NCBI GenBank assembly: GCA_041659405.1
Contig: JBAZYK010000007.1
Location: 57,126 to 89,125, forward strand
Direction: 5' to 3'
Length of the DNA: 32,000 nucleotides
Source: Candidatus Altimarinota bacterium
GTDB lineage: Bacteria > Patescibacteriota > Gracilibacteria > UBA1369
The notes beneath the pieces were generated by a model. That model searched no databases. It had not been told where the DNA came from and worked only from the letters and a program-made list of their open reading frames with translations. Both the position numbers and the translations under genes were made by a program. This document shows positions 2,313 to 32,000 of the stretch, in pieces; positions within the stretch are counted from its first letter, which is position 1, and every line of letters starts with the position of its first letter.

Positions 2313-2488
2313 AGGTTAGACGATTAAGAATTAAAAATTACGAATTTAGGGCTTTGACTTTTACAGTTGCATAGTTTAGCGCAACTTGTCATTTCTATAA
2401 AATCTTTCGTATTACTTTGATTTGATAATGTTGTGGATTTGTGGTTTTACTAGAGTTGTTCAAACAATTAACAATTAGTAATTAAGAA

Positions 2489-3364: not shown

Positions 3365-3406
3365 TACTTTATACAATGCGAATGTCTTTATAATTTTTTA
3401 TACACT

Positions 3407-4102: not shown

Positions 4103-4111
4103 TTTTTTGTT

Positions 4112-4945: not shown

Positions 4946-4986
4946 GTTTGTACGAACAAAAAACTGCTTTTGATCATCATTCAAAT

Positions 4987-5883: not shown

Positions 5884-5892
5884 TGTCTGCGA

Positions 5893-13565: not shown

Positions 13566-14051
13566 TTAACCAGCGATTTGCTCACTTGTTTTGAGGCTTG
13601 TTGATAAGCTTATAGGGTCTTTTCCTAGTATGGCTTTTCTTAAGAGTGAAGATTTGTAAACTTGCGGTTCGTATGATTGCAGTCTTTCAACCATCGCGTT
13701 AAGTTTAAGGTCAATCAGGGTTTTTTCCAGTCGTTGGGTGAAAACGAATTGGTCATACCCAAGCGCAATTACATCCGGACGGAATTTTTTTAAAACTTTA
13801 TGTTTATCGTTATGATACCCAAGCACGACTTTATCCGCGATGCCGCTTTTTTTAACGCTTTTTGCTCTTTGGCGTTCATTGTCGTCGGGTTGGCGTCCTT
13901 TGATTTTGCGGACGGTCTCATCACGCGCAATTATCACAATAAGATATTCGCCCAGAGCTTTGGCCTGTTTTAAGTAATTTTCGTGACCTGCATGAAATAG
14001 ATCGAAGGTTCCGAAAGCGATAACTTTTTTTAGAGGTGTCGTATTATTCAT
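13566..14051 (-). CDS. Cytidylyltransferase-fold nucleotidyltransferase, RibL-like (archaeal-type FAD synthase / FMN adenylyltransferase)
   Basis: GTFDLFHAGH (HxGH) and LIVIIARDETVRKIKGRQP closely mirror the M. jannaschii RibL segment LIVIVARDETVKKLKGRKP as I remember it. TagD- or PPAT-type activity cannot be excluded from sequence alone. Confidence 0.65.
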   Translation of the reverse strand: MNNTTPLKKVIAFGTFDLFHAGHENYLKQAKALGEYLIVIIARDETVRKIKGRQPDDNERQRAKSVKKSGIADKVVLGYHNDKHKVLKKFRPDVIALGYDQFVFTQRLEKTLIDLKLNAMVERLQSYEPQVYKSSLLRKAILGKDPISLSTSLKTSEQIAG

Positions 14052-14358: not shown

Positions 14359-14541
14359 GGGGGTGGCTTAAAATAAGGTTAAAACCGGGTGAGTTATTGC
14401 GCGAAGTGGCTATTTTTATCGTGTGCGGGCTGTGCTGCTTGTGTGCTTTTTTGTAAATTGGCGCAGCATGCTTTTTGTGTGCCCAAAAACCTGGTTTATT
14501 ATAGTGTTTGTTTAGGGAATTGTCTATTTTTGAGTGATGAA

Positions 14542-17568: not shown

Positions 17569-18795
17569 CTATCGGCAAAGTTCCACGATAAATTTTTCCA
17601 GGGTGAGTCTGAATTCGCTGATGTCGCCGGCAGTCATTTTAATTTTGCCGCTTTTAAAATCGGTATCAATCTTCAAAAGTAGACGGTAAATTGCGTCCAG
17701 TTTTTGGGTCGTGAAATTTCTGCATTGGCCCATTGAAGCTTCAATCACATAAGGGTTCTCTTTCATTTTGGCGGCGATTGCGTTTTTGTTCATTTTTCGC
17801 TTCAGGCAATCGTCAATCTGGATCAGAATTCTGAATTGTCTTATAATCATGGCAAAGATCTTCATGATTGGTTCTCCGCCTTCAAGCAGGGTATAAAAAG
17901 TTCGGAGCGATTCTTTGGCTTTCTTTTGGCCGATGTAGTCGGTGAATTTAAAAATCGAAACGGAAAGATTTGGGTTGGCCAGTTTTTGAATGGCTTCGGC
18001 GGTGATGGCGGCGGGAGCGGTGGCAGATGCGAAAGAAGCACTGTGTGCTGGCGTTGCGGCAACTGTGAAACTCGCGTTCGCCGGGGGCGCGGGAGCCAAG
18101 TTCGCGGAGGTTGCCGAATTCGCTGATGGCGTGGGCGCTGAGTTGTCACTCCCGCAGTACAGCACCAATTTTTCAACTTCCTGTTTCATTTGCCATAAAT
18201 TTGGCCCAACGATTTCGGCTAATAGCTGCGCTTCTTTAAGGCCGATGGTTACTTGTGGGCGTGCCTGCGTTTGCACCAGCGAAGGTTGGTTTTGGTTTGC
18301 GCTACCTTGCGCTTGTGCCTGCCCATCTTGCGCATGGCCATGCGACTGTCCAAACTTTGCTGATTTTTGCGCGACTTCTTTTTGGATCCATTGAGTCAGC
18401 CTGGCTCCAACTAAAAAATTAAAGTTTTCAACTTGGGCAACTTTTTTGAGTTTTTTATAAAGGGTCATGCGGGCGTCCGGCTTTTTTTCTTCAATAAAAA
18501 CCAAAATATTATGATCGGGAATATTCGCCAATTTTTCGGCAACGGCCTTTTTGTTTTCATCTTCGCCTTCATCCAAAAAATTATTTACAATTGTGAGTTT
18601 TTTCTCGCTTAAAAAGGGGACTGAGTTCAGGACTTCATTAAGCTGGGCGGCCGTCAAATCTCCGCCATCCAAAATATTAATGTTGATATCGCCATATTTT
18701 TTTTCAAACTGATCCCGCCAATGCTTACTTTTTTGGTAAGCGGAATAGGTGTCTTCGCCACAGAAAAGGAAAATGTTTGAAGGAGTTTGGGGCAT
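17569..18795 (-). CDS. holA: DNA polymerase III delta subunit
   Basis: IFLFCGEDTYSAYQKSKHW...ININILDG...LNSVPFLSEKKLTIVNNF is the canonical HolA N-domain. The start is placed at ATG 18795 (MPQTPSNIF...). The 81-codon upstream extension in the ORF track runs through a stop-free GC-rich spacer. Two GC-rich low-complexity inserts are present (see findings). Confidence 0.85.
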   Translation of the reverse strand: MPQTPSNIFLFCGEDTYSAYQKSKHWRDQFEKKYGDININILDGGDLTAAQLNEVLNSVPFLSEKKLTIVNNFLDEGEDENKKAVAEKLANIPDHNILVFIEEKKPDARMTLYKKLKKVAQVENFNFLVGARLTQWIQKEVAQKSAKFGQSHGHAQDGQAQAQGSANQNQPSLVQTQARPQVTIGLKEAQLLAEIVGPNLWQMKQEVEKLVLYCGSDNSAPTPSANSATSANLAPAPPANASFTVAATPAHSASFASATAPAAITAEAIQKLANPNLSVSIFKFTDYIGQKKAKESLRTFYTLLEGGEPIMKIFAMIIRQFRILIQIDDCLKRKMNKNAIAAKMKENPYVIEASMGQCRNFTTQKLDAIYRLLLKIDTDFKSGKIKMTAGDISEFRLTLEKFIVELCR

Positions 18796-19053
18796 GTTTG
18801 AGTGGTAGGATTTGTGATTTGTTATTTTTCGGGCTGCTGCGACGTTTTGCTTGTTGCGCTTGTGCGCGCGGCGTTGTGCGTTGTTGTGCATGTCGCTCGC
18901 TTGCGTGGGCAAGGCGTTTTGCGTAAGCTTGCACGGGCATTGTTGCGCCTTGGTGCTCGCCTGTATGTTGCTGCATGAATGTAGCACAAAGAAATTTTTG
19001 CGCCAACGGACATTGTGTGGCAAAAATTGTGCAATCACGACCGCTTACGTGGC

Positions 19054-20421
19054 TTAGTGTACCCCTTCCATCGATTTTTTTCTAAACCAACTCACCATTT
19101 GATCAACTTTAAATTTCGGCGCCCGCTCGTCCGCCCGCAACTGTAATTTCCAGTTTTGCACACCGGTTTGCGCATCTATCGGTTTCATTTCCTCATTTTT
19201 TATCAGCCCATGGTGAGCAAGTTGATGGTGTATTTTGCATACTGGCACAATGTTTTTGTGATCATGTTCTAGCGAAAATCTTTTGGTATGATGCTTGTTT
19301 TCGGCTGGCTTGTTGCAGCCGGGGTATCCACACATTTCATTATATTCAACTTTAAGTTGTCGCTGAGTTTCGATTGAAATGTAGTGCGTTATCTTTTTTT
19401 GCGCCTGCGGTGATTCGTGTTCATTGGATTGTGATGCTTGTTGCGATTGTTGCGTGAGATTAAGTTCTGGTTTCAACTTTACTTGAATACTTTTATTGTT
19501 CAGGATGGGTGTTTTTTGTTTTGTCGATGCCGATGCTGGTGCTGGTGCTGGTGCACTGTTACTCTTTGCTGGCATTTCAGTTCTTTCTTTCGCCATTTTC
19601 AAAAACTCTTCCATTACGTCTTCCCAGTTAAGCGCTTTCTTCTGCTGTTTCTCCAATTTAAACTTAAATAGTCTAAGTTTCCCTTCAATCTCCGGTCGCA
19701 CAAAAATTGTGATGCTTGCTTTTTGAAAATTTCCTGACATATTCGCGGCTTCGTTGACGAAGCCCTGAATTAAGGCTTGCTGTTGCGGAGTATTTGACTT
19801 GGATTCAAAAATATTTTGTTGTAACTCTTGCCCATTTTGCATTGTTTTTTCCAAAATAGAGTTTGGTTCGCACTTGGCTTGTGGACTCATAGCCTTCAAC
19901 ATCTCCTGATTTCGAATTTCACGGACAAATGTTTGTAAGGTAACCAGGCTCATACTTTTCAATTTATCAACCCAAAAATCCTGTGTTTCTGGCTCTACAA
20001 TGTTGGCTACAATTTCCAATTTGGCCCATCCACATTCAAGCATGAGTGCCATTAACTTTGGCTTATCTTCAAGCTTTTGTGCGACATTCAAAATTCTATT
20101 CACGATTTCAAAACCCATGCCGGCCAACTTTGCCGCAAATTCGCCTATGGAATGAAAGCCCCAATCACGACAAATGCATCTTTTGTTCACTTCAATCAAA
20201 TAAACTGCGAATTGTCGCTGTAATTTGCGAATATTTGCTCCGCAGTTCTGGCACAAGTGTAGCAATTCTTTATTGGAAAGTTTTTTGACCTCGCTCAATC
20301 CTGTATTGGAAAGTTGCGCGCTTTCGCCTTGTTGTGCGATTTTGTTTTGTCCTCCAGTTGAGACTTGTTCAGATTTTTGTGATGTCTGATTTTGTCCTGA
20401 TTGTGTTTGAAAATTGGTCAT
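19054..20421 (-). CDS. HNH endonuclease-domain protein with a long N-terminal helical region (DUF222/REP13E12-like architecture)
   Basis: The C-terminal HNH/zinc motif CGYPGCNKPAENKHHTKRFSLEHDHKNIVPVCKIHHQLAHHG spans aa 364-405 (nt 19207-19332). The N-terminus carries a CxxC (LCQNCG). A low-complexity APAPAPASAS linker is also present. Confidence 0.8.
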   Translation of the reverse strand: MTNFQTQSGQNQTSQKSEQVSTGGQNKIAQQGESAQLSNTGLSEVKKLSNKELLHLCQNCGANIRKLQRQFAVYLIEVNKRCICRDWGFHSIGEFAAKLAGMGFEIVNRILNVAQKLEDKPKLMALMLECGWAKLEIVANIVEPETQDFWVDKLKSMSLVTLQTFVREIRNQEMLKAMSPQAKCEPNSILEKTMQNGQELQQNIFESKSNTPQQQALIQGFVNEAANMSGNFQKASITIFVRPEIEGKLRLFKFKLEKQQKKALNWEDVMEEFLKMAKERTEMPAKSNSAPAPAPASASTKQKTPILNNKSIQVKLKPELNLTQQSQQASQSNEHESPQAQKKITHYISIETQRQLKVEYNEMCGYPGCNKPAENKHHTKRFSLEHDHKNIVPVCKIHHQLAHHGLIKNEEMKPIDAQTGVQNWKLQLRADERAPKFKVDQMVSWFRKKSMEGVH

Positions 20422-20460
20422 ATTTATTTTGGTTATTGGATGCGGGAATTTGACTGTTTG

Positions 20461-20489
20461 ATATTAGAATCTTGTTCCTCTAAAGCCAA
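20461..20489 (-). promoter_or_regulatory. Candidate sigma70-type promoter for the HNH gene
   Basis: The minus strand reads TTGGCT (20489-20484), 17 nt spacer, TAATAT (20466-20461). It lies about 40 nt upstream of ATG 20421. Confidence 0.35.
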
Positions 20490-20595
20490 AAAATCCATAC
20501 TAAGTTTCTAAATTCTGATGACGAAAATGGCTAATGTTTTATGGGTGAGTGTATGCTCACCTATGGAGGGGTTTAATTGGCGATGGGCGAAAATT

Positions 20596-20718
20596 GGAAG
20601 AAACCTAATGGACAATTGGGAGGCATGGAGATTGTTTCGTTGCTGATGTTTTGTGGTTGAGAAACTTGATGGATAATGGAGAGGCGTGCTGGATTGTTTC
20701 GTTGCTGATGTTTTGTGA
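20596..20718. repeat. Tandem direct repeat, two units of 61 and 62 bp with degenerate flanking copies
   Basis: Unit 1 is 20596-20656 and unit 2 is 20657-20718. The last 26 nt (GATTGTTTCGTTGCTGATGTTTTGTG, 20630-20655 and 20692-20717) are identical. The first ~35 nt are related but diverged (GAAAC[CT]T[AG]ATGGA[CT]AAT.GG.AGG). Weaker echoes occur at about 20556-20595 and 20719-20745. Confidence 0.6.
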
Positions 20719-20744
20719 TTGGAGGTTTGCATTTGATTGTGTTA

Positions 20745-20772
20745 ACAAAAAGCCCCCAATTTCTTGGAGGCC
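20745..20772 (-). terminator. Rho-independent terminator closing the giant-protein operon
   Basis: The minus-strand RNA reads G-CCUCCAA-GAAA-UUGGGGG-C followed by UUUUUGUU. This gives an 8-bp stem (one G.U pair), a GAAA tetraloop and a U-tract, about 120 nt after the stop of the 1506-aa gene. An A-tract on the other side allows bidirectional function. Confidence 0.6.
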
Positions 20773-20890
20773 GTTTGAAGTTTGCCCACTGGGGGTAGTT
20801 CGTGTTGGCTTGTGGATGAGTGTGTTTGTGCGCCTCTGTTGCTGTCTGCACTTTGTGTGCGATGCGCTTGCCCACTTTCGTTTGAGCAAC

Positions 20891-23800
20891 CTATCTCGCC
20901 GTAATTTCGGATTTCACGTCGACCAAATCTTGCAGACCTGGAGGAGTGTTGATGAAAATTCTTGCATCAGTGCGGAGGACGACGCTGCCTTCATTCAAAG
21001 CCGGATCGCCGGAGAATACACGCATCTTAAGTAATGGCTGAATGTCACCATAAACCGAGCCTTTAACTGTTAATTGAACTTTAGATTGTTCACCTGGGAG
21101 GCCCTTTTTGCTGCCGGAGATGAGTTGGCCTTTTGGCTGTGTTTTAATTACGGTATTGCCCTGAACAAAGATTACCGCGTCGATCTCTTTAACATTTGGA
21201 GAAATATAAACGTTTCCGTTCAAAACTACGAATGCAAGAGCGGCGGTGTCACGTGGGCTGCAATAACTTTTGTTGCAAACTCCTCCAATAATAATATCAT
21301 TGGTAATGTATAGATCGTGACCATCGACAATGAAAGTTTTGGCACCCTCACCGTCTTGTGTGAATTTATTTGTTCCGCTTTGTCCAACATAAAGGTCGCT
21401 CTTTGCTCTGCGATAAACGCCATCAATGCCGAAGACGTCTTTTAGGTCATTTGCGGACTTAAGTTCTTGACCTTTGGCCTTACCGATGTTGCTGCCTTCA
21501 GCGCTGTCCAAATTCGCATCCCATCGCGCAATACGTTTGATATTTTCTTTCATAGTATTGGTGATGACTCCTTTATCCCAATTTTTGCCTGTGGTTGTGT
21601 TTAGTTTGATTTCGCAAACCTGGCTGGAAAGGTTTCCATTTTGGGCGTAAAGGTTTTGAAGTTCGGCATTGTCGTTGTCAGCTCCGCCTTGGCAAACTTC
21701 ATGGTTAATAGTTACGGTTTTTCCTTCACCAGTTTTTGGAATAACTGGTGTTGGTGGCGTGATCGTGCGGATAATAATACCCGTTGTGGATTTATATGGA
21801 GAACATTTATTAATGTTAATGCCATAATTCATGTCGGTTTCCAGATAAATATCACCGGAAGCACGGCTTAGAATATACTGACAGAAGATTTGAACGGTTG
21901 CTTCATTGCTTGTGATTGGCAATTGTCCAAAATTGAAATTATCAACCCATGCGCTGGTAATTTCAGTTGTGTTTACATATTTTTCTTCACAGAATCCCAA
22001 TAGACAGCCTGCATCATTGATTTTTGTTTCATCGATTAGTCCATCATAAGTAATGGTAACTTGGTTGCTGACTTTTACAAGATTTAAACCTACTGTTGAG
22101 CCAATATCTCCATTATAACAATGCTCGATAATGTTTTTATCGCATTCAAAAAGTTGAGATCCGTTTTCGACAACTTTCATGTTGTTATGGTATGAAATGT
22201 GTCCTCCGTCAGTGTTGCCGTCTAGTCCCGGACGTAATTCAGCATTGAATCCATTTCCTGCGATCTTATCAAGCAGAACGGCACTGGTGTTTGGAGAACC
22301 CGGAGTGAAAATTAAACGGTAGTTAACAAGGTTGCCAGCTGGATAAACATCCAAAGGCGCTATTGTTAAAGTCTTTTTAAATCCGCTGACGTTTCCAAGA
22401 GCGGCAAGTCCTTTAACTTCTTTTGTAATTGTTGGAGGAACCGGAGGAGTTGGAGGAACCGGAGGCAGAGGAGTAACGTTTGCGGTACAACTTGTTCCTG
22501 GAATATTGGCTGTTAACGCTTCCCCTGGATTAGCAGTAGTACAAGCACTTCCGGTTGGGGTACCATTACTCCATACTACTTGATTGGCAAAAGTTGGAGG
22601 TGTGACATTGGCACAATAAGTATTGCTATTGGGTTGTTGAACCAGAGTCATGCTTTGGCAAACTCCTTGTGGAGGAGCTTGTGGAACAGTAAAGTTGGCT
22701 TTACAAATATCGCCAACCGGAATTTTTGGGTCGCTTTCAATAACTATTGCGGTAACGGTTCCACCTGTTGCAGCAACGTAAGTATATTGGCAAGTTGCTG
22801 GAGCGGCGAAAGTTACACTCTTGTTTGGTTGTTGACTTGCAACGGTTGGAGCGGCTGCTGCACATTCGTTTGGTGCGCCTGGAACCGCCTGTAAATAACC
22901 ACCGCCACTTTTGCTCCATTGTATCTGAGTTGGGTTTGGAGCTATTTGATTGGTTGGACTTACGCTTAAGATATAGCTTTGTCCATCCACGAAATTATTG
23001 TTAAATTGTGCAACCGGAGTTCCATTTACTGCCAGGTTCAAAGCTGTACAAACATTTGGTGCAGGTTTGCCCGGAGGAGAAATCTGAATTGTATCCGCAC
23101 ATTGATTAACTTTAAATCCATCGTTTTTGTCGTAACCGAAAACGGTGATGGAAGTGTTGTCAGTCTGGCTTACTCCCGTGAAAGTTGTTTTGTCATTGTC
23201 GTGAGTTACAGTAAGAGGATTAGCAGGTCCTAAAACTTTTTTGCTAAGTGCATCAATGGCTGTAAATTGGCCTGTTTTGACGCTGTTTACAGCGCCGGCC
23301 CAATCATAATTCAAATTAAGTCCGGCGTCTTTATCCACAACCAGATACAAATCTTTTAATGGATAGTTTTTCAGATCATCGGAACTCAATGAATCAGGAT
23401 ATTGCTTGCCGTTGCCATAAATCTGCAGACTGTGGCAAATAGGAAGTGGTTTTGCCTGTGGTTTGATTACCACTTTACAGGAAGGAACCTGATATTTGGC
23501 GTCGGTTGGCATGATTGTGACTGTAGTATTTGCGCCTCCACTTGTATAAGAAACCTTGGCGGTTCCGTTTACAGTTGAAGCGTTTACAGGAACACCTTTG
23601 CCGTCTTTTCCGGCATCAAATAAACCTTTTGCTTTGCCATTTTCCAAGGCGTTGAAGTTTACTTTGCCTGTGTAAGTTACCGCTTTACCATTTTGATCCT
23701 GAAGATTTACAGTCGCGGTAAAATTAGTTTTTTTGGTAGCATCAAAAGGAGTCGGCGTAAAATCCACCGTGATGTTTTTACAAGTAATTGACGGTTGTTT

Positions 23801-25411
23801 TGGTGGTGGAATAGGCAGTGCAGGGATCACAAGTGAAGCCTTACATTTGCTAAGATCAATAGGTTGCAGGTTATAGGCAGAAGAAATAGCATCAACTGTG
23901 ATCAAGGTTGGAAGTGCTCCTGTGCTACCTGTGTAATAGGTATCAGTATCATCAACTGGATAACCAAGAGCTTGAGAGAAATTGTCCACATCGGTATATG
24001 GTCGGCCGGAATCTTTAGAAGTTGCGCTATCGGCAAAGAAACCGAATGGATCAAGAGTTAATTTGTTTGGATCCACAACGTTGTTTAGAACAGGAGTGTT
24101 TTGCTGAACGAGTGCGTTTGCCGGGGCAAGATTAGCATTCGCCTTTCCCGGGATTTGCGCAGGGTTTGGGCTTCCGGCTAAAGCCAAGAAATTGTTGGAT
24201 AAAAGATTGTTTTGAAACGGGTTGCCGTTCAAATTTACGTTTGCCGGACTAAATGGGTTTCCTTTGGATTCTTGAGCATTCCAAGTGTAATCAAGATCAA
24301 CTTTTTTGCCGGCTGGAGTGAAAGTCGGTTTTACATTGAAAGTAACCGGTTTTCCAGCAACCCAAGAACTTGGAGTGATGGTAAGGTCAACGCAGGCGAT
24401 GGGTTGGACTACAGGGGCGGGGGTTTTCCAGACTGTTCCAACTACACCGATTCTAAACCAATAGTATTCTTTTCCTTTTGAACTTGGATCCCATTGATCT
24501 TTTACCAGTACGTGAGTTTGTTCAACTCCTGCAACATTTGAAGCTGGAGTTGTACACCATTGACCATCGTAATTTGGCACGCTGTTTGGGACACCATCAT
24601 TGGCGCATAGTGGAGGAACGTTGTTTAAAACGTCTTGTTTGGAAACGGTACTCTTCTTAATTGCTAAATGTCTTATTAAAGCTCTTGAGGTTGTTGTGGC
24701 ACTCCATACTGTTTTAGCTTGATTTCCCAGGCTACTTTTTACAGTCATTTTTACTCCTGTTCCATAAAATCCATGAACTGTTGGTAAACCTGGATTTGTT
24801 CCCCAAAAATGTGGTCTTCCCTTTGAATCATTTGCAAATTTCCATGTAACGACTCCGGTATTTTTATCAAAAGTAATTTTTGTTCCTCCCCAAATATTAA
24901 TGTCTGATTTTGTTACACAACCTGGTGTTTCATAGATTTTATTATTTTGATCAGGTGTTAAACAAACTATTTGATTTAAATCAGTATTTGTTAATGCATC
25001 TTGTTCAAGAATTATCTGCATACTATCCATGTAACCCATGTAGTAAAAATCATCTTCCAAATCGGCATTGTGATAAATGTGAGTATGGATAGCTTGTGGA
25101 ACTTTAATGTTATCGATTCCAGGCTCATTTTTTAACTGATTATCATTATAAACCGGAGGTTGTGGCTTATATTGATTTGGATATTCAATATGGGAATAAC
25201 AAGCAGGGTTGTTGGTTCCTTCCATAAGATTGAACCATTTTGTATCGTATGGACTGGCTACCTGTCCGCTGGGATTATATGGGTATACTCCCAATGAACA
25301 TGCACTATACGATAAGCTGGTATTAACTGCAGCGTTAGCGGTTTGCATGGTGAGTAAAAGCCCTAAGAGAGCTGATATAACTCCAATTTTTCTAAATTTT
25401 ACATTGAACAT
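20891..25411 (-). CDS. Giant secreted Cys-rich modular surface protein (1506 aa), function unknown
   Basis: Sec-type signal peptide MFNVKFRKIGVISALLGLLLTMQTANA/AV. The protein is rich in T/N/P/G. It contains reiterated ~125-aa modules bounded by Cys / Pro-linker / Cys junctions and a PPVPPTPPVPPT linker. It also has a DUF11-like ITKEV...YRLIFTP segment and a C-terminal beta-rich region. No LPXTG motif and no C-terminal TM helix. Confidence 0.85.
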   Translation of the reverse strand: MFNVKFRKIGVISALLGLLLTMQTANAAVNTSLSYSACSLGVYPYNPSGQVASPYDTKWFNLMEGTNNPACYSHIEYPNQYKPQPPVYNDNQLKNEPGIDNIKVPQAIHTHIYHNADLEDDFYYMGYMDSMQIILEQDALTNTDLNQIVCLTPDQNNKIYETPGCVTKSDINIWGGTKITFDKNTGVVTWKFANDSKGRPHFWGTNPGLPTVHGFYGTGVKMTVKSSLGNQAKTVWSATTTSRALIRHLAIKKSTVSKQDVLNNVPPLCANDGVPNSVPNYDGQWCTTPASNVAGVEQTHVLVKDQWDPSSKGKEYYWFRIGVVGTVWKTPAPVVQPIACVDLTITPSSWVAGKPVTFNVKPTFTPAGKKVDLDYTWNAQESKGNPFSPANVNLNGNPFQNNLLSNNFLALAGSPNPAQIPGKANANLAPANALVQQNTPVLNNVVDPNKLTLDPFGFFADSATSKDSGRPYTDVDNFSQALGYPVDDTDTYYTGSTGALPTLITVDAISSAYNLQPIDLSKCKASLVIPALPIPPPKQPSITCKNITVDFTPTPFDATKKTNFTATVNLQDQNGKAVTYTGKVNFNALENGKAKGLFDAGKDGKGVPVNASTVNGTAKVSYTSGGANTTVTIMPTDAKYQVPSCKVVIKPQAKPLPICHSLQIYGNGKQYPDSLSSDDLKNYPLKDLYLVVDKDAGLNLNYDWAGAVNSVKTGQFTAIDALSKKVLGPANPLTVTHDNDKTTFTGVSQTDNTSITVFGYDKNDGFKVNQCADTIQISPPGKPAPNVCTALNLAVNGTPVAQFNNNFVDGQSYILSVSPTNQIAPNPTQIQWSKSGGGYLQAVPGAPNECAAAAPTVASQQPNKSVTFAAPATCQYTYVAATGGTVTAIVIESDPKIPVGDICKANFTVPQAPPQGVCQSMTLVQQPNSNTYCANVTPPTFANQVVWSNGTPTGSACTTANPGEALTANIPGTSCTANVTPLPPVPPTPPVPPTITKEVKGLAALGNVSGFKKTLTIAPLDVYPAGNLVNYRLIFTPGSPNTSAVLLDKIAGNGFNAELRPGLDGNTDGGHISYHNNMKVVENGSQLFECDKNIIEHCYNGDIGSTVGLNLVKVSNQVTITYDGLIDETKINDAGCLLGFCEEKYVNTTEITSAWVDNFNFGQLPITSNEATVQIFCQYILSRASGDIYLETDMNYGININKCSPYKSTTGIIIRTITPPTPVIPKTGEGKTVTINHEVCQGGADNDNAELQNLYAQNGNLSSQVCEIKLNTTTGKNWDKGVITNTMKENIKRIARWDANLDSAEGSNIGKAKGQELKSANDLKDVFGIDGVYRRAKSDLYVGQSGTNKFTQDGEGAKTFIVDGHDLYITNDIIIGGVCNKSYCSPRDTAALAFVVLNGNVYISPNVKEIDAVIFVQGNTVIKTQPKGQLISGSKKGLPGEQSKVQLTVKGSVYGDIQPLLKMRVFSGDPALNEGSVVLRTDARIFINTPPGLQDLVDVKSEITAR
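22434..22465 (-). repeat. 18-bp tandem duplication encoding the PPVPPT PPVPPT linker
   Basis: On the plus strand, GGAGGAACCGGAGG occurs at 22434-22447 and again at 22452-22465 (period 18). This lies inside the 1506-aa gene. Confidence 0.6.
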
Positions 25412-25438
25412 TTTTGTGTTGGGTTAATTTTTATTTTT

Positions 25439-25588
25439 TTATTCATGGGAAATTTCCGTCTGCGCGTTTGTACTTGGTGAAATATTACTAGTACTGTTGT
25501 TTGTGTTTACCAGTAATTTAAAACCAATGATTGCAATGATGACGATTAGCGCAACTAGAAGTAATATTTTATAGTTTATTTTTTTCAT
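25439..25588 (-). CDS. Unannotated 49-aa single-pass membrane micro-protein between the two giant genes
   Basis: My translation from ATG 25588 to TAA 25441-25439 is MKKINYKILLLVALIVIIAIIGFKLLVNTNNSTSNISPSTNAQTEISHE. It has a basic N-terminus, a ~20-aa hydrophobic helix and a polar tail. It starts 17 nt after the 1867-aa stop and ends 27 nt before the 1506-aa start. It is below the ORF-track cut-off. Confidence 0.4.
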   Translation of the reverse strand: MKKINYKILLLVALIVIIAIIGFKLLVNTNNSTSNISPSTNAQTEISHE

Positions 25589-25605
25589 AAATTTATTAAA
25601 TTAGA

Positions 25606-28600
25606 TTATTCGTATTTTTTAGTTGTGTCTACTTTTCCGCTTGGATCTACGCCTTGGGCAACTTGGTTGGTATCTCCGACTATTGGATTATTTGTTGGTA
25701 CTTTTTTACCCGGTGGAATTCCTGTAGGAGGTGGAATTATTTCACCTTTAGGGCCTTCCGGTTTACCGGCTATACCGGCTGCAAAACCAAGTGTTAAAGT
25801 GTTGTGCTGGGTTGTTGAAGATGCTTCTGCTACGCTGGTACCTTGGCCTGCGTATCCTGCAAAGGCGCCGACTTGTTCTGTGCGGATTTCCAAACCTAAT
25901 TTTTCGTTAATCCAGTTGGAATAGTTTGTACATTTTTTGTAAACTCCATCAAATGTTTCAAGTTTCCAAACAAAACGGAAATCGGGATGTTTTGGATCCA
26001 GATATGCTTCCTTGCCTTCTGCTTGAGCTTTACGGATTCCTTCCAGAAGTTTGTAAAGTTCTTGTGCGGCTTTCACTTCATCTGTATTTAAGGCTGTTTT
26101 TTGATTTGCCACTATATCAATAACAATATCTCGGTATTCATCCTTGCTGAAGAGGCCTTGTGTAGCTGGGTTTTCCAATAAACCGGTTATTTGTAGGGTA
26201 AGTGGATTACTTAATAAGTTTTTAATTTTTTCCTGAGAGTTGAAATCTCCTTTGTCTTCAGCCATAGCCTCCATCGGACTAAAAGATTCCATGACGAATT
26301 TGGCCATGTCCGCTTCGATTGTATTTGGGGTTTGTAAAGCCTTGGAATATTCCACTCCACCTAAAAGTTTTTTGTCTTGATCTTCATCTTTGGTATAAAG
26401 TGTTCCTCTAAATCCACGTTCACCTTCGGTACTTGCCATGGATAAGAAACGGTCAACTTCTTTTACGTTAACTGCTCCTGTGTCGCTGTTAATATCAACA
26501 CCCTTAACACGATCTAGAGCGTATGCAGACAAAAGTTCCGGGGCGCTATTAATGCGGCGTGGGTCTTCAGCTTTCGGGTATTTTGCCTGATTTCTTTCCA
26601 CTACATCTTTAAAGCGTTTTTCAGTTGTTTTGCGGGTTCTCTTAAGTTGGTCCAAGAAGGCTGCTTGTCTTGCTTTTGGATCTTTGATCTTATCAAGTTC
26701 AGTGAATGATTCGTCAACCAATAAACCTCTGATAAGGTTCAGTTCGGCAAGATTTGGGTTTGTTCTATTGTGTTTTTCCGCCCAATCTTTATTAATTTTT
26801 GTTGTTAATTCTTTATAATCAGCAGAATCAGTTTCTTTATTACTAAGTCTGCGGTAATCCTTTTTATTTGCCTTTTCGAAGTCTTGCGCAAATTTTACAT
26901 AGTCTTGGTATTTGGATTCGTCAATTTTCCCGATTGTTTGTTTGAATGTATTAATATTTTTTTCAGTTCCTGCAGAATTTTTTCTTGCTTCAAATTTCTT
27001 GAATGAACCATCATCAATCTTAAATCCTGAAGCAGCTGCATCGGTAAGCATACAGTCGGTTGTTTGTGGGTGGAAGCCTGTTTCTGGTTTCCAGCCTTCA
27101 CCTCTTGTTGAAACTAAAACTCTTGGAGCCTGGCGATATATTTCCATTCCGGGAGTATTTGGTTGATCGCTTATTGTAATGATCGACACAAAGCTTGCGC
27201 CCGCTTCTTTTGGAAATGGATATTCAAAGTTGCTTCGTTTAATTGTAAGCGGATTTTCCGGTTTGAAATCTGAAGCAAGGAAAACGCGGCCTCCTTCAAA
27301 GACGATTCCACCTTTTGCCATTGCCGGATCTACAGCAAGTTCAAAATTTCTTTTTTCGTCATGTGGAATTAATAGTTCAAATAATTTTTTGGTTGGATCA
27401 TATTGAACTTTTAATCTAAGAGGTTCGTAAAGTGCATTAAGGCTGACTTCCAGTTTTTGGATAGAATCGATATTTTCAATAGGCGCGGTTTGTAATGGTT
27501 TTGTTGCATCTTTTACAAGAACCATTCTACCTTCTATACCTGCTGCTATATTTCCAGATTTTTCATTTAGGAAAAGAATACGTTTTTCTTCATCATTTCT
27601 GTCTTCTGTTTTTTTATTTAAAATAGAAATGAGTTGTTCTCGATCAATTTCTGATTCCATTTGTTCAGTCGATTTGTCTGATCTGAAATAGGATTTACGG
27701 TCATCGGAAAGTGTGAAATCAGGACTAATTCCAAAGACGAATTTTCCTTCGTTTGTTAGACCGAAACCAAAACTTGCGCCATTAAAGCCGGTTGGGTCGT
27801 AATTTTCCTGAACTGTTTGAACGAGATCTTTTCTTAAATTATTGTAAGCAATAAGGATCTTTTCTTGGTCGTTTAAGGCAGTCCTATCTTGTTGTAAAAT
27901 GGCGCTTCTTAACCGTGGATTTCGCATAATTGCAATTGTTTTTGCCCGTGGATCTGTAATTAGATCAATGTTGGTAAATCCAAATGCTTTCAATCCATCA
28001 TCCAGTGCTTCACGCATTTTGTATTCATGATTTTTCTTGTATCCATATACAACACCAGGTAATAAGCCAAAGTTGGTGGCAACTATGCCGACACTAACTT
28101 TGTGTTTATAGCCTGAGCTGTCTGTTCCAAGGTCTATACCAAGTGCAAGGCCTGCGCCTCCGCCAAGTTTTAAACCTTCTTCACTGACTCCAAAGCCAAG
28201 GCTTGCGCCACCGATGATACTAAAATTAACGTTTCCAATATGGCCAATAGGTGCGGTTTCGTATCCGGCTCCTGTTCCTACAGCAGCACCTACTTCACCT
28301 GTTTTCAATCCAATTCCAAGGCCTGTACCTCCACCAAGGAATAAAGTTCCATATTTGCCGTTTTCGCCCAGTTCAACCGGAAAGTTTAATGCTATGCCTA
28401 AACCAAGAGTCTTTGTATTAGCGTCATATCCTACAACCGGAATTACAGGAATAGCTTTAGAAACTGTTGTTTTAACTTCTTTTTCTAATTCAGCGCCTTT
28501 TAAGCCTTGTTTTATGTAATGTTTTCTTATGGCATTTTCAAAATTTTGACGATCTGCTTCTGGAAATTTGTAATAATTTGTTAAAGCTTCGGCGTATTTC

Positions 28601-31209
28601 TTATTAACATCGGTTTTTCTGAGATCTTCTTTTTGGGCAAGATCTAATACAAGGCCTTTTTGGATCATTTTAAAGATTGCCTGGTTTTCTTGTGGATGGC
28701 CAAGTAATCCAACAAGTTGGTAATCTGGAACTTTAGAAACATCATAAACTCCATCTTGATCTTTTGTAATACCTAAAAGTCCTTGTAATTCTGCTTCTAC
28801 CTGTTGGCGTTCTGTATCGTTAGGGTAGAGGACTCTTAGTCTGGATAGACCGGTTTGTAATAAATTACGGAATTGATTGAAAACAATTGTCTGATCAAGT
28901 TTTCCATTTTTAAGACCTCCGGCCTTTTCAACCATTTCCTTGAATTTAGCATTGGCATAAGAGCCGTTCATGTGCATTAAAGTTTCTTTGGCATCGTATT
29001 TTTTATCGACTTGTTCCAAAACATCGTTCCAACTTCTATCACCAATTTCATCGGGAAATACGTTTTGAATATATTGTCTAAGTTGTAAGTTTTCAGGGCT
29101 ATAATCTGTGATGTGTTCTGGTCTGCTCCTTAAGGCACGGCTTTCTTGTAATGCTCTTTCGTCGAGTTGCATATTTTTCAAGCCAAGGCCCAGTTTCGTG
29201 GTGCCAATAACCAAGTTTTTATAAAAATTTAAAATGTCAGGCCTGGAAGCATATTCTGGTTTGGCGAATGCTCCTTGATAAAACCTGTCAAATTCAGCTT
29301 TGGCATTGTCGTAGTTTATTAAAGGTGTAACCGCATCTCTAAACCATTTTGCGATGGTATTTTTATTACTATTTGGGTCACGATCACCACTGACCAATTC
29401 AGCTTCGTTGAAAGTCTTTTCGTTGGAATAGCCATTTTGACTTACGTATAAGCCTCCACCTGGATAGTTATAGATGACGATTTTTCCTTCATTGTTGATC
29501 TTGGCACGATAGAGATGGTTTTCAAATTCAAAATCGACAACCATAGCTGCGCCTCCTTTTTCTCTGTACTTATCGGATAATTTAGCATTTTCGTATGCTC
29601 CTAATTTTGTCAAAAAGCCCATGGCAAGATGACGGGCAGTTAAAGTATCTCCCTGATATTCTGGATTATGAAAAGGTGAATATTGATCTGAAAATTTTTC
29701 TTCTCCGTTTAATTGATCCATGGCAAACGGAACTTTTTCAGCGGAATAAGAAGGCATTCTAACTCCTGCCTCTTTCATTAAAATATTTACAAGATCAGCT
29801 GTAGTGAAGTTTTCATCTGATCCTTTTGTAATTGTCTTGTTGATTGCTGTTCTAAGTTTGTCTGGATCTTTTTTAAGATGTTCAAAGATCGGTTCATCCA
29901 TGATAATTCCTTTTAGTGCGCGTATTCCGGCAATGGCGCCGTTGGCCCATACTTCAGCCCATTTCTCCTTGTCGTCTAAAGCTTCAACAATTTTTGGGTC
30001 ATTGATCTGGAATGTTGTTTCTCCTTCGCGGAAGTTTGTGGTAAAAAAATATTTTTCACGATCTTGCGCGATTTTTTGATTCTCTCCTTGTCTGCGTGCA
30101 GTGCCTTCTTTTTCTTGTTTATCTTCACGGCCAGGGATATCTTTTTCTTTTGGAATTAAAAGATAGACGGTGTTGTCTGATCTTAAAGCCTTTTCTTTTG
30201 ATAAAAAGGCGAAGTAATCTTCATATTTTAAATTGAGGTCCCTTAGTTTTTGAATTTTAGGATAATTTTTAAAAGCTACTTTTTCATTAGGATTTATAGC
30301 GTCACGTAAAGCTTTTTCAAGAGTTTGACCTATTTCCGGTTTAATTTTGAATTTCCCGACAATTTCGTGATTTTTAAACAATTGATATTCAGCATTATCC
30401 TCGTTTTTTTGATCTACTGTGATTTTTCCTTTTTCAGGAGTTTTTTCTGTTTGTGCAGTGTAAATAATAGTTGTATCAGCAAGCAGTGGAACTTCAGTTC
30501 CGTCTCTTTTAACAAATTTACCGTTTTTATAGGTGAGAAAATAACTTTTGGTCTCAGTAGAAGGTGCTAAAACCTTAATTTTATCACCATCTTTTAATTG
30601 AGTTTTGAGAATTCTTGTAACTTCATCTCTATTTTGATTATTAACAACGATTGGCTTTTCTCTGCTTTTAGTAGTTGTAACCTCAGGTACTTTTTTTCCT
30701 TTTTCGCCTACTGATTCTTGAGTAGGTGGATGTGGTAATTTTGGTACAATTGCAAAACTTTCCCAGGTAAGTGAGCTTTTATCATTTTTTTCAAAACTGA
30801 TCCTCCCGTTTTTTAATATAATTTTACTTACATTTTTTTCACCTAATTCTTTCCAATATTGGTTCAATGTTAATGATGTTCCTTTGTTTTTCCCCTGTTC
30901 TTCAAAGTTGGCTAGTAGATCTTTATAATACGGATCTGCTAAAATAAGAGCATTTTTATAAGCTTTTTTGGCTAAATTACGCAATGTTTCCTCAATTTTT
31001 TTTGGGTCTTTATCAAAATTAACTTCGGCATCACCTGGTGGTATTTTCATAAGCTGTTCAGCCATGCTGTCCAGAATGTCCTTTGGTCCTTCTGGTGCTT
31101 TTTGTTTGCTGGTTTCTTTCCCTTCCTCAAAAACCGCCCTCTTCACCAAGCTTTCGTCCGCTCCGGGGATGCAGTTTTTTAACTGTAGGAATTTGTTGTT
31201 TATTTTCAT
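25606..31209 (-). CDS. Giant hypothetical protein (1867 aa), no signal peptide, Lys/Glu-rich with a central glycine-zipper-like segment
   Basis: Uninterrupted 5.6-kb ORF. The N-terminus MKINNKFLQLKNCIPGADES is not hydrophobic, and there are only 3 Cys. A Gly-rich core spans aa ~922-1057, and the C-terminal tail is Gly/Pro-rich. I could find no Walker A, HExxH, YD/Rhs or RTX motif. Confidence 0.85.
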   Translation of the reverse strand: MKINNKFLQLKNCIPGADESLVKRAVFEEGKETSKQKAPEGPKDILDSMAEQLMKIPPGDAEVNFDKDPKKIEETLRNLAKKAYKNALILADPYYKDLLANFEEQGKNKGTSLTLNQYWKELGEKNVSKIILKNGRISFEKNDKSSLTWESFAIVPKLPHPPTQESVGEKGKKVPEVTTTKSREKPIVVNNQNRDEVTRILKTQLKDGDKIKVLAPSTETKSYFLTYKNGKFVKRDGTEVPLLADTTIIYTAQTEKTPEKGKITVDQKNEDNAEYQLFKNHEIVGKFKIKPEIGQTLEKALRDAINPNEKVAFKNYPKIQKLRDLNLKYEDYFAFLSKEKALRSDNTVYLLIPKEKDIPGREDKQEKEGTARRQGENQKIAQDREKYFFTTNFREGETTFQINDPKIVEALDDKEKWAEVWANGAIAGIRALKGIIMDEPIFEHLKKDPDKLRTAINKTITKGSDENFTTADLVNILMKEAGVRMPSYSAEKVPFAMDQLNGEEKFSDQYSPFHNPEYQGDTLTARHLAMGFLTKLGAYENAKLSDKYREKGGAAMVVDFEFENHLYRAKINNEGKIVIYNYPGGGLYVSQNGYSNEKTFNEAELVSGDRDPNSNKNTIAKWFRDAVTPLINYDNAKAEFDRFYQGAFAKPEYASRPDILNFYKNLVIGTTKLGLGLKNMQLDERALQESRALRSRPEHITDYSPENLQLRQYIQNVFPDEIGDRSWNDVLEQVDKKYDAKETLMHMNGSYANAKFKEMVEKAGGLKNGKLDQTIVFNQFRNLLQTGLSRLRVLYPNDTERQQVEAELQGLLGITKDQDGVYDVSKVPDYQLVGLLGHPQENQAIFKMIQKGLVLDLAQKEDLRKTDVNKKYAEALTNYYKFPEADRQNFENAIRKHYIKQGLKGAELEKEVKTTVSKAIPVIPVVGYDANTKTLGLGIALNFPVELGENGKYGTLFLGGGTGLGIGLKTGEVGAAVGTGAGYETAPIGHIGNVNFSIIGGASLGFGVSEEGLKLGGGAGLALGIDLGTDSSGYKHKVSVGIVATNFGLLPGVVYGYKKNHEYKMREALDDGLKAFGFTNIDLITDPRAKTIAIMRNPRLRSAILQQDRTALNDQEKILIAYNNLRKDLVQTVQENYDPTGFNGASFGFGLTNEGKFVFGISPDFTLSDDRKSYFRSDKSTEQMESEIDREQLISILNKKTEDRNDEEKRILFLNEKSGNIAAGIEGRMVLVKDATKPLQTAPIENIDSIQKLEVSLNALYEPLRLKVQYDPTKKLFELLIPHDEKRNFELAVDPAMAKGGIVFEGGRVFLASDFKPENPLTIKRSNFEYPFPKEAGASFVSIITISDQPNTPGMEIYRQAPRVLVSTRGEGWKPETGFHPQTTDCMLTDAAASGFKIDDGSFKKFEARKNSAGTEKNINTFKQTIGKIDESKYQDYVKFAQDFEKANKKDYRRLSNKETDSADYKELTTKINKDWAEKHNRTNPNLAELNLIRGLLVDESFTELDKIKDPKARQAAFLDQLKRTRKTTEKRFKDVVERNQAKYPKAEDPRRINSAPELLSAYALDRVKGVDINSDTGAVNVKEVDRFLSMASTEGERGFRGTLYTKDEDQDKKLLGGVEYSKALQTPNTIEADMAKFVMESFSPMEAMAEDKGDFNSQEKIKNLLSNPLTLQITGLLENPATQGLFSKDEYRDIVIDIVANQKTALNTDEVKAAQELYKLLEGIRKAQAEGKEAYLDPKHPDFRFVWKLETFDGVYKKCTNYSNWINEKLGLEIRTEQVGAFAGYAGQGTSVAEASSTTQHNTLTLGFAAGIAGKPEGPKGEIIPPPTGIPPGKKVPTNNPIVGDTNQVAQGVDPSGKVDTTKKYE

Positions 31210-31288
31210 AGGTTTGTTTGTTTAATTTTTGTTTATAAGTGTGAGGGAGGGGCTGTGTGCTGCGCTTTGGCTGGCACATGTGCGTTTT

Positions 31289-31792
31289 TTACCTTTTGTT
31301 CTTGTTTATTTCTTCCAGTAAATCTTCCAATTGTTTTTTGGCATCAACGATCTTTTGGGCGCGTTCCATGACGCGTTGATCGTAATAGCTTGAATGTGCT
31401 TCAAAAACGATTGGTTGTGTATAAGGGGTAATGTCGATGCGCTCTTTTTTGCTGTTGTAAAAGCTTAAATGTCCGTCTTCAATGTTTAGTTCTTTACAGC
31501 CTGCATCCGCCATTTTTTCCCAGAAATCTTTAATTCCGACTTCGGGACTTAGTGTTTCTGTTAATGATTTTACGATGGCTTCTTCATACGCACGGCGATT
31601 AAGTTCATCGGTTGGGAAAGTTTTTTCGGCAAGAGCCTGTAAACTTTTGTTCATTTCGCCGGGCAAAAATTTGGCAGTTGCGTTGTATTGTTGCCATTGA
31701 TTTTCTTCCGCAACGCGAGTCTGCGTTCGCTCTCCAAAACTGGATGCTTTAGCGGCTTTTGTGTTTTTTTTGTTCACAGTTGTAGTTGCCAT
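31289..31792 (-). CDS. Hypothetical 167-aa soluble protein, first gene of the giant-protein operon
   Basis: ATG start 44 nt downstream of a strong promoter. It has a basic N-terminus and a C-terminal helical tail (KKQLEDLLEEINKNKR). Residues ~89-122 weakly resemble aa ~117-150 of the 1867-aa protein. Confidence 0.7.
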   Translation of the reverse strand: MATTTVNKKNTKAAKASSFGERTQTRVAEENQWQQYNATAKFLPGEMNKSLQALAEKTFPTDELNRRAYEEAIVKSLTETLSPEVGIKDFWEKMADAGCKELNIEDGHLSFYNSKKERIDITPYTQPIVFEAHSSYYDQRVMERAQKIVDAKKQLEDLLEEINKNKR

Positions 31793-31835
31793 AAAGTTTG
31801 TTTTTTAGAGTTTTTAGAGTTTTAGAAATCTTTAA

Positions 31836-31864
31836 ATTATAACAAAATAAGCTCAAATGGTCAA
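31836..31864 (-). promoter_or_regulatory. Strong sigma70-type promoter with extended -10, driving the giant-protein operon
   Basis: The minus strand reads TTGACC (31864-31859), 17 nt spacer (ATTTGAGCTTATTTTGT), TATAAT (31841-31836). A TG two nt upstream of the -10 gives TGtTATAAT. This is the best consensus match I found in the window. Confidence 0.55.
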
Positions 31865-31918
31865 TTACATGGCTCACCCCTTTCCAAGATTTCAAGGAAC
31901 AAAAGCCGAAATAATGGC

Positions 31919-32000
31919 TTAGGAGTCTGCAAAAATAACTTTTAAGTCAAGTGGTGGTTCAGCGGTCATTTCATAGAGCTTTTTGAGGCCTCCAAGCAGG
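31919..32000 (-). CDS. Possible 3' end of an upstream minus-strand gene (partial, 26 codons plus stop)
   Basis: The frame entering from the window edge reads ...LLGGLKKLYEMTAEPPLDLKVIFADS* with stop TAA at 31921-31919. It is too short to identify. Confidence 0.25.
   Translation of the reverse strand, partial: LLGGLKKLYEMTAEPPLDLKVIFADS

Follow-up and report, generated by a model that had tools for sequence, protein, structure and literature searches.

A conserved four-gene cassette encoding two giant proteins in Peregrinibacteria and Peribacteria: a candidate envelope or cell-surface apparatus

Introduction

How Candidate Phyla Radiation (CPR) bacteria attach to and exploit other cells is, to our knowledge, largely unexplained outside the type IV pili of Saccharibacteria, and we know of no cultured member of the Peregrinibacteria. 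In the same lineage, Anantharaman et al. 2016 (PMC4736985) reported large extracellular proteins in Peribacteria that are often rich in Cys, vary between strains and may serve in attachment; the class is loose and includes a 14-gene cluster at ~7% Cys. A similar point was made for the giant membrane proteins of Vampirococcus by Moreira et al. 2021 (PMC8080830). Here we analyse a cassette of four genes, termed A to D, in a 32,000-nucleotide stretch of DNA (hereafter the window; positions 57,126 to 89,125 of contig JBAZYK010000007.1, assembly GCA_041659405.1), which comes from a metagenome-assembled genome (MAG) labelled Candidatus Gracilibacteria at NCBI (database protein WC843_04305).

The cassette spans ~11 kb, ~0.8% of a genome of ~1.3–1.5 Mb, and two of its products are giant proteins, of which one (D) resembles the Peribacteria class and the other (B) falls outside it. 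Gene order, chromosomal position, promoter and terminator are conserved across related genomes, and a small gene of the cassette is related to the N-terminus of its giant neighbor. We give about even chances to the reading that it is a single operon whose products would build a lineage-specific complex at the envelope or cell surface, likely for attachment.

Results

A lineage-restricted cassette at a fixed chromosomal site

The cassette and the signals that bracket it are, in the direction of reading:

31828..31864, minus strand: promoter, with -35 box TTGACC at 31864-31859, extended -10 box TGtTATAAT at 31844-31836 and downstream element TTAAAGAT to 31828
31289-31792, minus strand: gene A, 167 aa, without signal peptide or transmembrane (TM) helix, with a C-terminal helix at its end
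25606-31209, minus strand: gene B, a giant protein of 1867 aa, without signal peptide, Cys-poor (0.16%) and mostly alpha-periodic
25439-25588, minus strand: gene C, a bitopic micro-protein of 49 aa whose single TM helix separates a basic N-terminus from a polar tail
20891-25411, minus strand: gene D, 1506 aa, with a Sec signal peptide, conserved end domains and a variable immunoglobulin (Ig)-like middle
20743..20772, minus strand: intrinsic terminator, with a stem at 20772-20751 (9 bp with 5 G-C, 4-nt loop), then TTTTTGTT

The gaps between A and B, B and C, and C and D are 79, 17 and 27 nt. An earlier note, made by reading the letters of the window, had listed four co-directional minus-strand open reading frames (ORFs) with these gaps, and its coordinates were reproduced exactly. 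It had also described the surroundings as housekeeping, and the flanking genes were indeed identified as such: H+-pyrophosphatase, panB, panC, dfp, relA, recO, ftsX, coaD, gatCA, a trmB-like gene and holA. The stop codons of A to D are TAA or TAG and none of the four genes contains an in-frame TGA; their boundaries therefore hold under genetic code 11 or code 25.

How widespread is the cassette? The earlier note had called it an ORFan operon, a label that is not borne out. D has 17 homologs in a word-indexed database and was located in 38 genomic loci when GTDB species representatives were scanned with two D peptide patterns, and an exhaustive HMMER search of 1.84 billion representatives with a profile of the B C-terminus returned a B family of 82 clusters at 50% identity, 54 of them at E <= 1e-10 and nearly all consisting of proteins of 1600–2600 aa or fragments. 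The families are thus lineage-restricted and unannotated. For B, the word-indexed search returned the window protein, one 79% relative and P0020 only, even with an alignment as query; B orthologs were recovered through the genomic context of D and through the exhaustive search. All 38 D loci lie in MAGs labelled Peregrinibacteria, Peribacteria, Gracilibacteria, Altimarinota or Patescibacteria, and in these sequence searches the operon was found only in the Peregrinibacteria/Peribacteria lineage of the CPR.

In each context fetched, a gene of ~165 aa was followed by one of ~1800–2300 aa, often by one of ~50 aa, and then by the D homolog, and the A-B-(C)-D order is kept in the related loci compared (labelled L001-L043). 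With hidden Markov models of the orthologs, A-B-D was recovered in nearly all loci with sufficient flank; in four apparent exceptions an ORF of 1596–2067 aa still lies directly 5' of D, so that D is immediately preceded by a giant ORF wherever flank was available. The co-occurrence of the families in the same order, which the earlier note had put forward as a check, thus came out positive in nearly all related loci where enough flank was available. The usual site of the cassette is between a divergent tpiA and holA-trmB-gatCA-coaD-ftsX-recO-relA. Order, orientation and tight spacing are retained even where B is <20% identical. Rather than an accessory island, the cassette is a core feature, inherited vertically and fixed in its place on the chromosome.

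Protein A is related to the N-terminus of B, and C is a small membrane protein

When five A orthologs were aligned with six B N-termini in hhalign, the two groups matched with 98.1% probability (E 7.9e-14, 83 columns), A residues 31-114 aligning with B residues 55-142. Within the domain common to both, a strand motif is predicted (I-x-x-G-x-L-x-F). In more basal lineages, the A protein also retains the extreme N-terminal motif of B (e.g., ...KFVFQKMEKPSAQ); A is therefore a duplicate of the whole N-terminal module of B. A was located 5' of B in ~22 loci. We also observed A-like genes doubled in tandem in L017 (2581-3558) and a 442-aa protein with the A domain in L007 (1-1680); thus, the small paralog appears to have been duplicated or expanded more than once.

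Consistent with its earlier description as a single-pass membrane peptide, C has one strong TM helix (Kyte-Doolittle [KD] maximum 3.17). Between B and D, 22 loci (20 once identical sequences are merged) have a C-like ORF of 48–72 aa with the same architecture. Loss of C did not correlate with a TM helix being present in B. A small polar tail with a final Glu closes most C proteins and several of the B proteins (...NAGE, ...SANE, ...ATE; window 25439-25444 and 25609-25614, orthologs in L001-L040), which could be a feature of the proteins or a constraint from the A-rich intergenic region of translation restart.

One promoter and one terminator bracket the four genes

The promoter (TTGACC-17-TATAAT with an upstream TG) matches the consensus at 11 of 12 positions and has the top score in 20–32 kb. 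The earlier note had called it the best in the window, which is defensible, the sole rival 11/12 site (14526-14498) lacking the TG. Its other statement, that the cassette terminator is the only textbook one in the window, went too far: the terminator at 20772-20751 is the highest-scoring site within the block, and a site at 14421-14446 (plus strand) is of comparable quality. No consensus promoter or strong terminator was found within the 79, 17 and 27-nt gaps, and in-block matches are at chance level.

Both signals recur in related loci. The element TGnTAnAnT-NN-WNWGAT, which joins the extended -10 box to a conserved start region, lies 33–63 nt 5' of the A start codon in 18/20 related loci and is preceded at 17 nt by TTGnnn; elsewhere in the 897 kb scanned it has just three further matches. 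Upstream of A, the sequence that the window has in common with L001 starts just 5' of the -35 box, where synteny breaks. Downstream, a G+C-rich hairpin with a T-run lies 40–95 nt past the D stop codon in ~21/23 related loci. Since the bracketing promoter and terminator are conserved along with the cassette, one transcription unit is favored, and we infer that A to D are co-transcribed as a single operon, which is probably expressed strongly and constitutively.

These results bear on the view that four unrelated lineage-specific genes are merely adjacent. That C can be lost fits such a view, but order, orientation and spacing persist at <20% identity of B, a single conserved promoter stands 5' of A and a single terminator 3' of D, and A is paralogous to the B N-terminus. 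Because synteny, promoter and terminator are conserved and A and B are paralogous, we rejected chance adjacency, which we judge very improbable.

Around the promoter, a small hairpin (31920-31903) terminates the gene upstream of the cassette, a co-directional ORF (31865-32000, minus strand) that ends at ~31925 (...KVIFADS*). In relatives the upstream neighbor is instead a divergent gene, tpiA in most and an unidentified gene in L001. The leader of gene A (31793-31835) holds the direct repeat AAACTCTAAAAACTCTAAAAAAC. Most genes of the window have no Shine-Dalgarno sequence in the 30 nt before their start codons; their leaders are A-rich.

Protein D is predicted to be an exported string of Ig-like domains

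D was described earlier as Sec-exported and Cys-rich, and both points were confirmed: it begins with the Sec signal peptide MFNVKFRKIGVISALLGLLLTMQTANA|AV (aa 1-27) and contains 30 Cys (2.0%, compared with 0.83% in neighboring housekeeping proteins). A signal peptide, or an N-terminus resembling one, is present in all 18 members of the D family, and 17 of the 18 have an even number of Cys, which fits disulfide pairs in an exported protein. After the signal peptide follow a conserved N-domain (aa ~28-335), Cys-bounded Ig-like repeats (~336-985) and a conserved C-domain (~986-1506) that contains FCQYILTRAAGDIFLE. Family members range from 1190 to 2094 aa in length, as set by the variable Cys-bounded modules. 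Invariant residues of the N-domain include H109, H111, N115, D138 and a WSATTTSRA motif. The HxHxYxN...D pattern formed by these four residues (window ~24998-25087, minus strand) suggests a possible metal-binding or catalytic site; the model of a D ortholog is of low confidence just upstream of this region.

An AlphaFold2 model of the 1190-aa ortholog P0008, built on an 18-sequence alignment, is all-beta, with a predicted local distance difference test score (pLDDT) of 67.6 and good confidence over residues 100-880. Searched against the PDB with Foldseek, it matched the Ig-like domains of PrgB (E 1.9e-9), and further matches were alpha-2-macroglobulin MG domains, Bap, the N2 domain of Cnm, BcpA and CfaE; in a viral structure library it matched DUF11, Big-1 and FN3 proteins. 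At the sequence level, neither D nor its 17 relatives carry a Cna_B, DUF11 or Big signature of Pfam above threshold, the sub-threshold matches being Big_2 in one member (E 5e-4) and Invasin_D3 in the window protein (E 0.15). The model therefore points to D working as an extended Ig-like stalk or fibre.

The only LPXTG-like motif of D is IPKTG at residue 1224. We rejected it as a sortase signal: it is internal and non-conserved, and the C-terminus (...DLVDVKSEITAR) has no hydrophobic segment.

Protein B is a collinear but divergent giant with a Gly-rich amphipathic core

Three segments stand out in B:

30775..31209, minus strand: N-terminal module, aa 1 to ~145, with [KR]-x-[VI]-F at ~15-30, a Pro/Glu/Lys linker and the ~85-aa domain common to A
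28015..28467, minus strand: Gly-rich amphipathic beta core, aa ~915-1065, ~8-10 predicted strands with hydrophobic residues alternating with Gly
25609..25812, minus strand: C-terminal Pro/Gly/Thr-rich tail, aa ~1800-1867, probably disordered

B orthologs are collinear yet only 15–24% identical across the clade. Averaged over the family, the beta-periodic hydrophobic moment peaks in the core (0.92–1.0, compared with 0.28–0.66 in nearly all other bins); the exception is aa 1251-1300 (0.89). No part of B is richer in Gly than the core, which is also its sole net-hydrophobic region. The last 67 aa are 15% Pro and 15% Gly, and the tail is acidic, with comparable tails in all orthologs examined. Conserved blocks further include YPFPKExGAS...SIITISDQP at ~1330-1350 and GVYxxCxNYS at ~1755-1765.

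Where does B reside? As the earlier note had stated for both proteins, A and B have no signal peptide and no TM helix; in B no clear TM helix was found at a KD19 maximum of 1.48. B is charge-balanced (K+R 273, D+E 274), and Cys make up 0.16% of its residues (family median 0.22%, compared with 0.83% in housekeeping proteins). Its composition and the missing signal peptide point to an intracellular protein, whereas Cys depletion, speed of divergence and the beta-amphipathic core point to an exposed one. B may thus be cytoplasmic and membrane-peripheral or be exported by a non-Sec route, and its core may engage a membrane. A low-confidence AlphaFold2 model (pLDDT 35) shows the Gly-rich segment as long beta hairpins and has helices in other parts.

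B and D diverge faster than their neighbors

Compared with L001 and L002, the window is 90–97% identical in housekeeping proteins, 98% in A, 100% in C (identical in L002), 79% in B and 82% in D (the latter relative to L002). In L001, the D N-terminus is just 41% identical while B on the same contig is 79% identical, although the strains are near-identical. At the distance of L003, housekeeping proteins are 71–92% identical, A 77%, B ~24% over its aligned N-terminal part and D ~50% over its C-terminal 860 aa, with no match for C; GatA is 88% identical where B is ~24%.

We computed dN/dS (nonsynonymous over synonymous rates) by the Nei-Gojobori method and found 0.06–0.12 for housekeeping genes, 0.03 for A, ~0 for C and 0.29 overall for both B and D. 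Along B, the Gly-rich core (aa 927-1026) is the most constrained segment (0.07) and the first ~200 aa are the fastest between close strains (0.64–0.74); in D, aa 801-900 reach 1.2. By these values, A, C and the B core are tightly constrained, and B and D are under relaxed or locally diversifying selection, typical of exposed proteins.

Could B act on another cell? In this alternative, B would be an exported pore-forming or host-membrane-inserting effector that leaves by a non-Sec route and places its beta hairpins in the host membrane, with C as a small holin-like or export helper, A as a chaperone that either mimics or binds the N-terminal export module of B, and D for attachment. Several features are compatible with it: (i) no B member has a signal peptide, and the conserved extreme N-terminal motif and module are duplicated as A; (ii) the ~150-aa stretch of hydrophobic/Gly strands, the most constrained part of B, matches a small beta barrel or hairpin bundle in both size and pattern; (iii) B is depleted in Cys and evolves very fast; and (iv) among the other products of the operon are a membrane micro-protein and an adhesin-like protein that is exported. 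However, the beta core is deduced from periodicity, B resembles no toxin, translocon or barrel in PDB or Pfam and has no detectable catalytic or effector domain, C is missing in a whole subclade, the window contains no dedicated secretion ATPase, and a single-copy core locus is unlike the variable accessory loci of toxins. We consider this alternative possible but unlikely.

Alternatively, D may form an S-layer-like coat or fibril, with B a giant cytoplasmic or membrane-peripheral scaffold for its export or anchoring and C the TM link, by analogy with the Mycoplasma terminal organelle or the SlaA/SlaB canopy-stalk pair. A strong conserved promoter and a terminator are typical of coat-protein genes, and the fixed core-genome position, the conserved ends and variable middle of D, and the K/E-rich, alpha-periodic, signal-less sequence of B with its Pro/Gly-rich acidic tail all agree with such an arrangement. 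Against it, no SLH domain or other known S-layer anchor was found, and D has 30 Cys; S-layer proteins are usually Cys-free. Neither the ~20% identity of B next to neighbors at 70–90% nor its Cys depletion is expected of a cytoplasmic scaffold, and a beta-amphipathic Gly-rich core is not known in cytoskeletal scaffolds. This arrangement, too, seems to us improbable, though it deserves consideration.

The cassette proteins match no known family and no phage

For A to D, no match above noise came from Pfam, NCBIfam, PADLOC or PHROGs, nor did Pfam yield one for relatives of D (18), of A (17) or of B (4 distant ones). Profile searches of PDB sequences, with 18 sequences for D, 5 and 33 for B and 17 for A, had no significant outcome: for B, nothing below E 0.04 was reported, and the best PDB matches had E 0.2–2. 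No PADLOC defence model matched any cassette protein. By regular expression, Walker A, HExxH, RTX GGxGxD, YD and canonical LPxTG motifs are absent from the four proteins, reproducing the absences that the earlier note had listed; the giant proteins also showed no confident homology to the S-layer, RTX/MARTX, Rhs or anchored-adhesin families, by which it had proposed to judge its reading. Specifically, RTX/MARTX systems are disfavored by the lack of GGxGxD, of an RTX match in Pfam and of ABC/MFP genes in the window, Rhs proteins by the lack of a YD motif and a Pfam match, and SLH-type S-layers by the lack of an SLH or known cell-wall-binding domain in D or its 17 relatives (Pfam, NCBIfam).

Tape-measure proteins are long, helical and signal-less with Gly-rich hydrophobic segments, and phage fibres often have Ig-like domains. 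The cassette could accordingly be pictured as a mobile-element or prophage remnant with a tape-measure-like B and a tail-fibre-like, Ig-rich D, and the D model does structurally match phage Big-1, FN3 and DUF11 proteins. But PHROGs held no match for A, B or D, tblastn against 50,697 phage records found none, and IMG/VR contains no relative of D. The cassette moreover shares its chromosomal site and its flanks across dozens of species, its surroundings contain no gene for an integrase, capsid or terminase, GC content across B is only slightly below that of the flanks, and A, C and the B core are under purifying selection. On the database negatives and the fixed site, we rejected a prophage or tape-measure origin, to which we assign next to no probability.

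Other features of the window

Between the D terminator and holA (19054-20732, minus strand), the window has a 455-aa ORF and a 74-aa ORF. The former has 2% Cys, a weak PHROG match to an HNH endonuclease (E 9e-6) and a weak sub-threshold Pfam match to Rtr1/RPAP2. Both are absent from L002, L003, L005 and L012, where D is directly followed by holA, and look like a strain-specific insertion. On the plus strand, a 707-aa ORF at 7332-9455 has no Pfam, PADLOC or PHROG match and 0.14% Cys; in relatives, unannotated ORFs of similar size adjoin relA (L003, 647 aa; L007, 708 aa), suggesting a conserved lineage-specific protein.

The genes at 186-7239 and 13566-14051 encode a membrane H+-pyrophosphatase, a Fumble-type pantothenate kinase, PanB, PanC, Dfp (CoaBC) and CoaD, so that the pantothenate/CoA pathway looks near-complete within the window, which is unusual for CPR bacteria. 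holA (17569-19038, minus strand) is called at 489 aa from a GTG, compared with 325–340 aa in relatives; its alignment covers residues ~61-489 only, and its start was probably called too far upstream, by ~60–150 aa. The window showed no tRNA and no Rfam family.

Code 25 (TGA read as Gly), which was raised by the Gracilibacteria label, was dismissed on the absence of in-frame TGA from the cassette genes. Among the 23 main ORFs of the window, none has an in-frame TGA and one ends in TGA (panB, which overlaps the start of panC). Whatever its label, the organism therefore reads as code 11, and the relatives nearest to it carry the label Peregrinibacteria/Peribacteria.

Discussion

How might the four products work together? 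In the reading that we favor, D would be a Sec-exported, disulfide-stabilised, extended fibre or coat of tandem Ig-like domains, whose conserved end domains would dock to the envelope or to a partner and whose variable middle and C-terminal half would face outside. B would be its giant partner, with the ~150-aa Gly-rich beta core engaging a membrane and the helical arms and Pro-rich tail serving as scaffold or spacer. A would bind the same partner as the B N-terminus, as an assembly, chaperone or regulatory subunit, and C would be a single-pass membrane adaptor. The four products may associate physically, and the assembly would attach to another cell or surface or interact with it. The tandem Ig-like stalk of the D model and the elevated dN/dS of B and D fit a role at the surface or in the envelope.

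Several points weigh against this reading. C is lost in a whole sister subclade, where the B-D gap is 14–47 nt. A signal peptide was found in 0/33 B members, and the K/E-rich, alpha-periodic composition of B looks cytoplasmic. The AlphaFold2 model of B aa 801-1867 is unreliable (pLDDT 35, three-sequence alignment), and the beta core rests on sequence periodicity. D has no recognisable anchor, LPXTG, SLH domain and C-terminal TM helix all being absent. Finally, Ig-like stalks are generic and no proof of adhesion, and a fixed housekeeping site with vertical inheritance equally suits a structural coat.

The earlier note had proposed an ORFan envelope or host-interaction apparatus. The apparatus gains support from the Ig-like fold of D, the evolutionary rates and the conserved cassette, while the ORFan label falls away; the role in episymbiont attachment or membrane attack, which the note had thought plausible, may be one that the assembly plays. 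In the boldest form of this view, B would represent a novel type of giant protein, exported without Sec, whose conserved ~150-aa Gly-rich beta-hairpin core forms a small barrel or pore in a foreign (host) membrane, with D tethering the cells and A acting as decoy or chaperone for the export module at the B N-terminus, together an undescribed host-contact and feeding device of Peregrinibacteria; we hold this to be doubtful. B is at present unclassifiable and could be something new.

The cassette offers a testable candidate for the main envelope or host-contact structure of the lineage, and it defines three protein families (A, B and D) that current databases leave unannotated. If it proved to be only a surface coat, it would be the first defined coat operon for the lineage. 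Giant hypothetical surface proteins in CPR bacteria will not surprise the specialist; the operon, the constrained core and the decoy-like paralog provide concrete handles.

How does the cassette compare with known systems? Gram-positive stalk adhesins and pilins of the MSCRAMM type (PrgB, Bap, Cnm, BcpA) share with D a Sec signal peptide and, according to the model, a string of Ig-like beta-sandwiches. However, D differs from them in having no LPXTG, no Cna_B, DUF11 or Big domain at the sequence level, disulfide-bounded domains and unmatched N- and C-domains.

Large clostridial and TcA-type toxins are giant and signal-less; their pore-forming region is hydrophobic and central, and a small membrane protein is encoded nearby. 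B is likewise giant and signal-less, with a hydrophobic Gly-rich segment in mid-protein between helical regions and a small membrane gene adjoining, a resemblance that is organisational only: PDB profiles and Pfam showed no sequence or profile similarity of B to these toxins, B lacks their glucosyltransferase, protease and receptor-binding repeats, and its locus is core and vertically inherited. The Mycoplasma terminal organelle combines giant scaffolds of the HMW2 type, with Pro-rich acidic domains, and P1-type adhesins. There, too, a giant signal-less helical protein with a Pro-rich tail accompanies a large exported adhesin-like protein in a host-dependent bacterium of small genome. B has no known homology to HMW2-type proteins, and it has a beta-amphipathic Gly-rich core in place of a continuous coiled coil. 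In type VII LXG/WXG100 systems, a small protein is related to the N-terminal domain of a large secreted protein next to it, as A is to B; by contrast, A and B have no WXG/LXG match in Pfam and no WxG by regular expression, and the window contains no EssC-type ATPase.

Literature searches turned up no account of the cassette, the B family or the paralogy between A and B. The closest known counterparts are the Cys-rich proteins of Peribacteria (PMC4736985), which belong to the same lineage and with which D shares a length of >1000 aa, a signal peptide, elevated Cys and strain variation. The four-gene cassette, a signal-less B, the A-B paralogy and the conserved promoter are not in that paper; D has 2% Cys, and B, without signal peptide and at 0.16% Cys, stands outside the class. 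The locus is best filed under a kind already suspected, the large-surface-protein loci of CPR bacteria.

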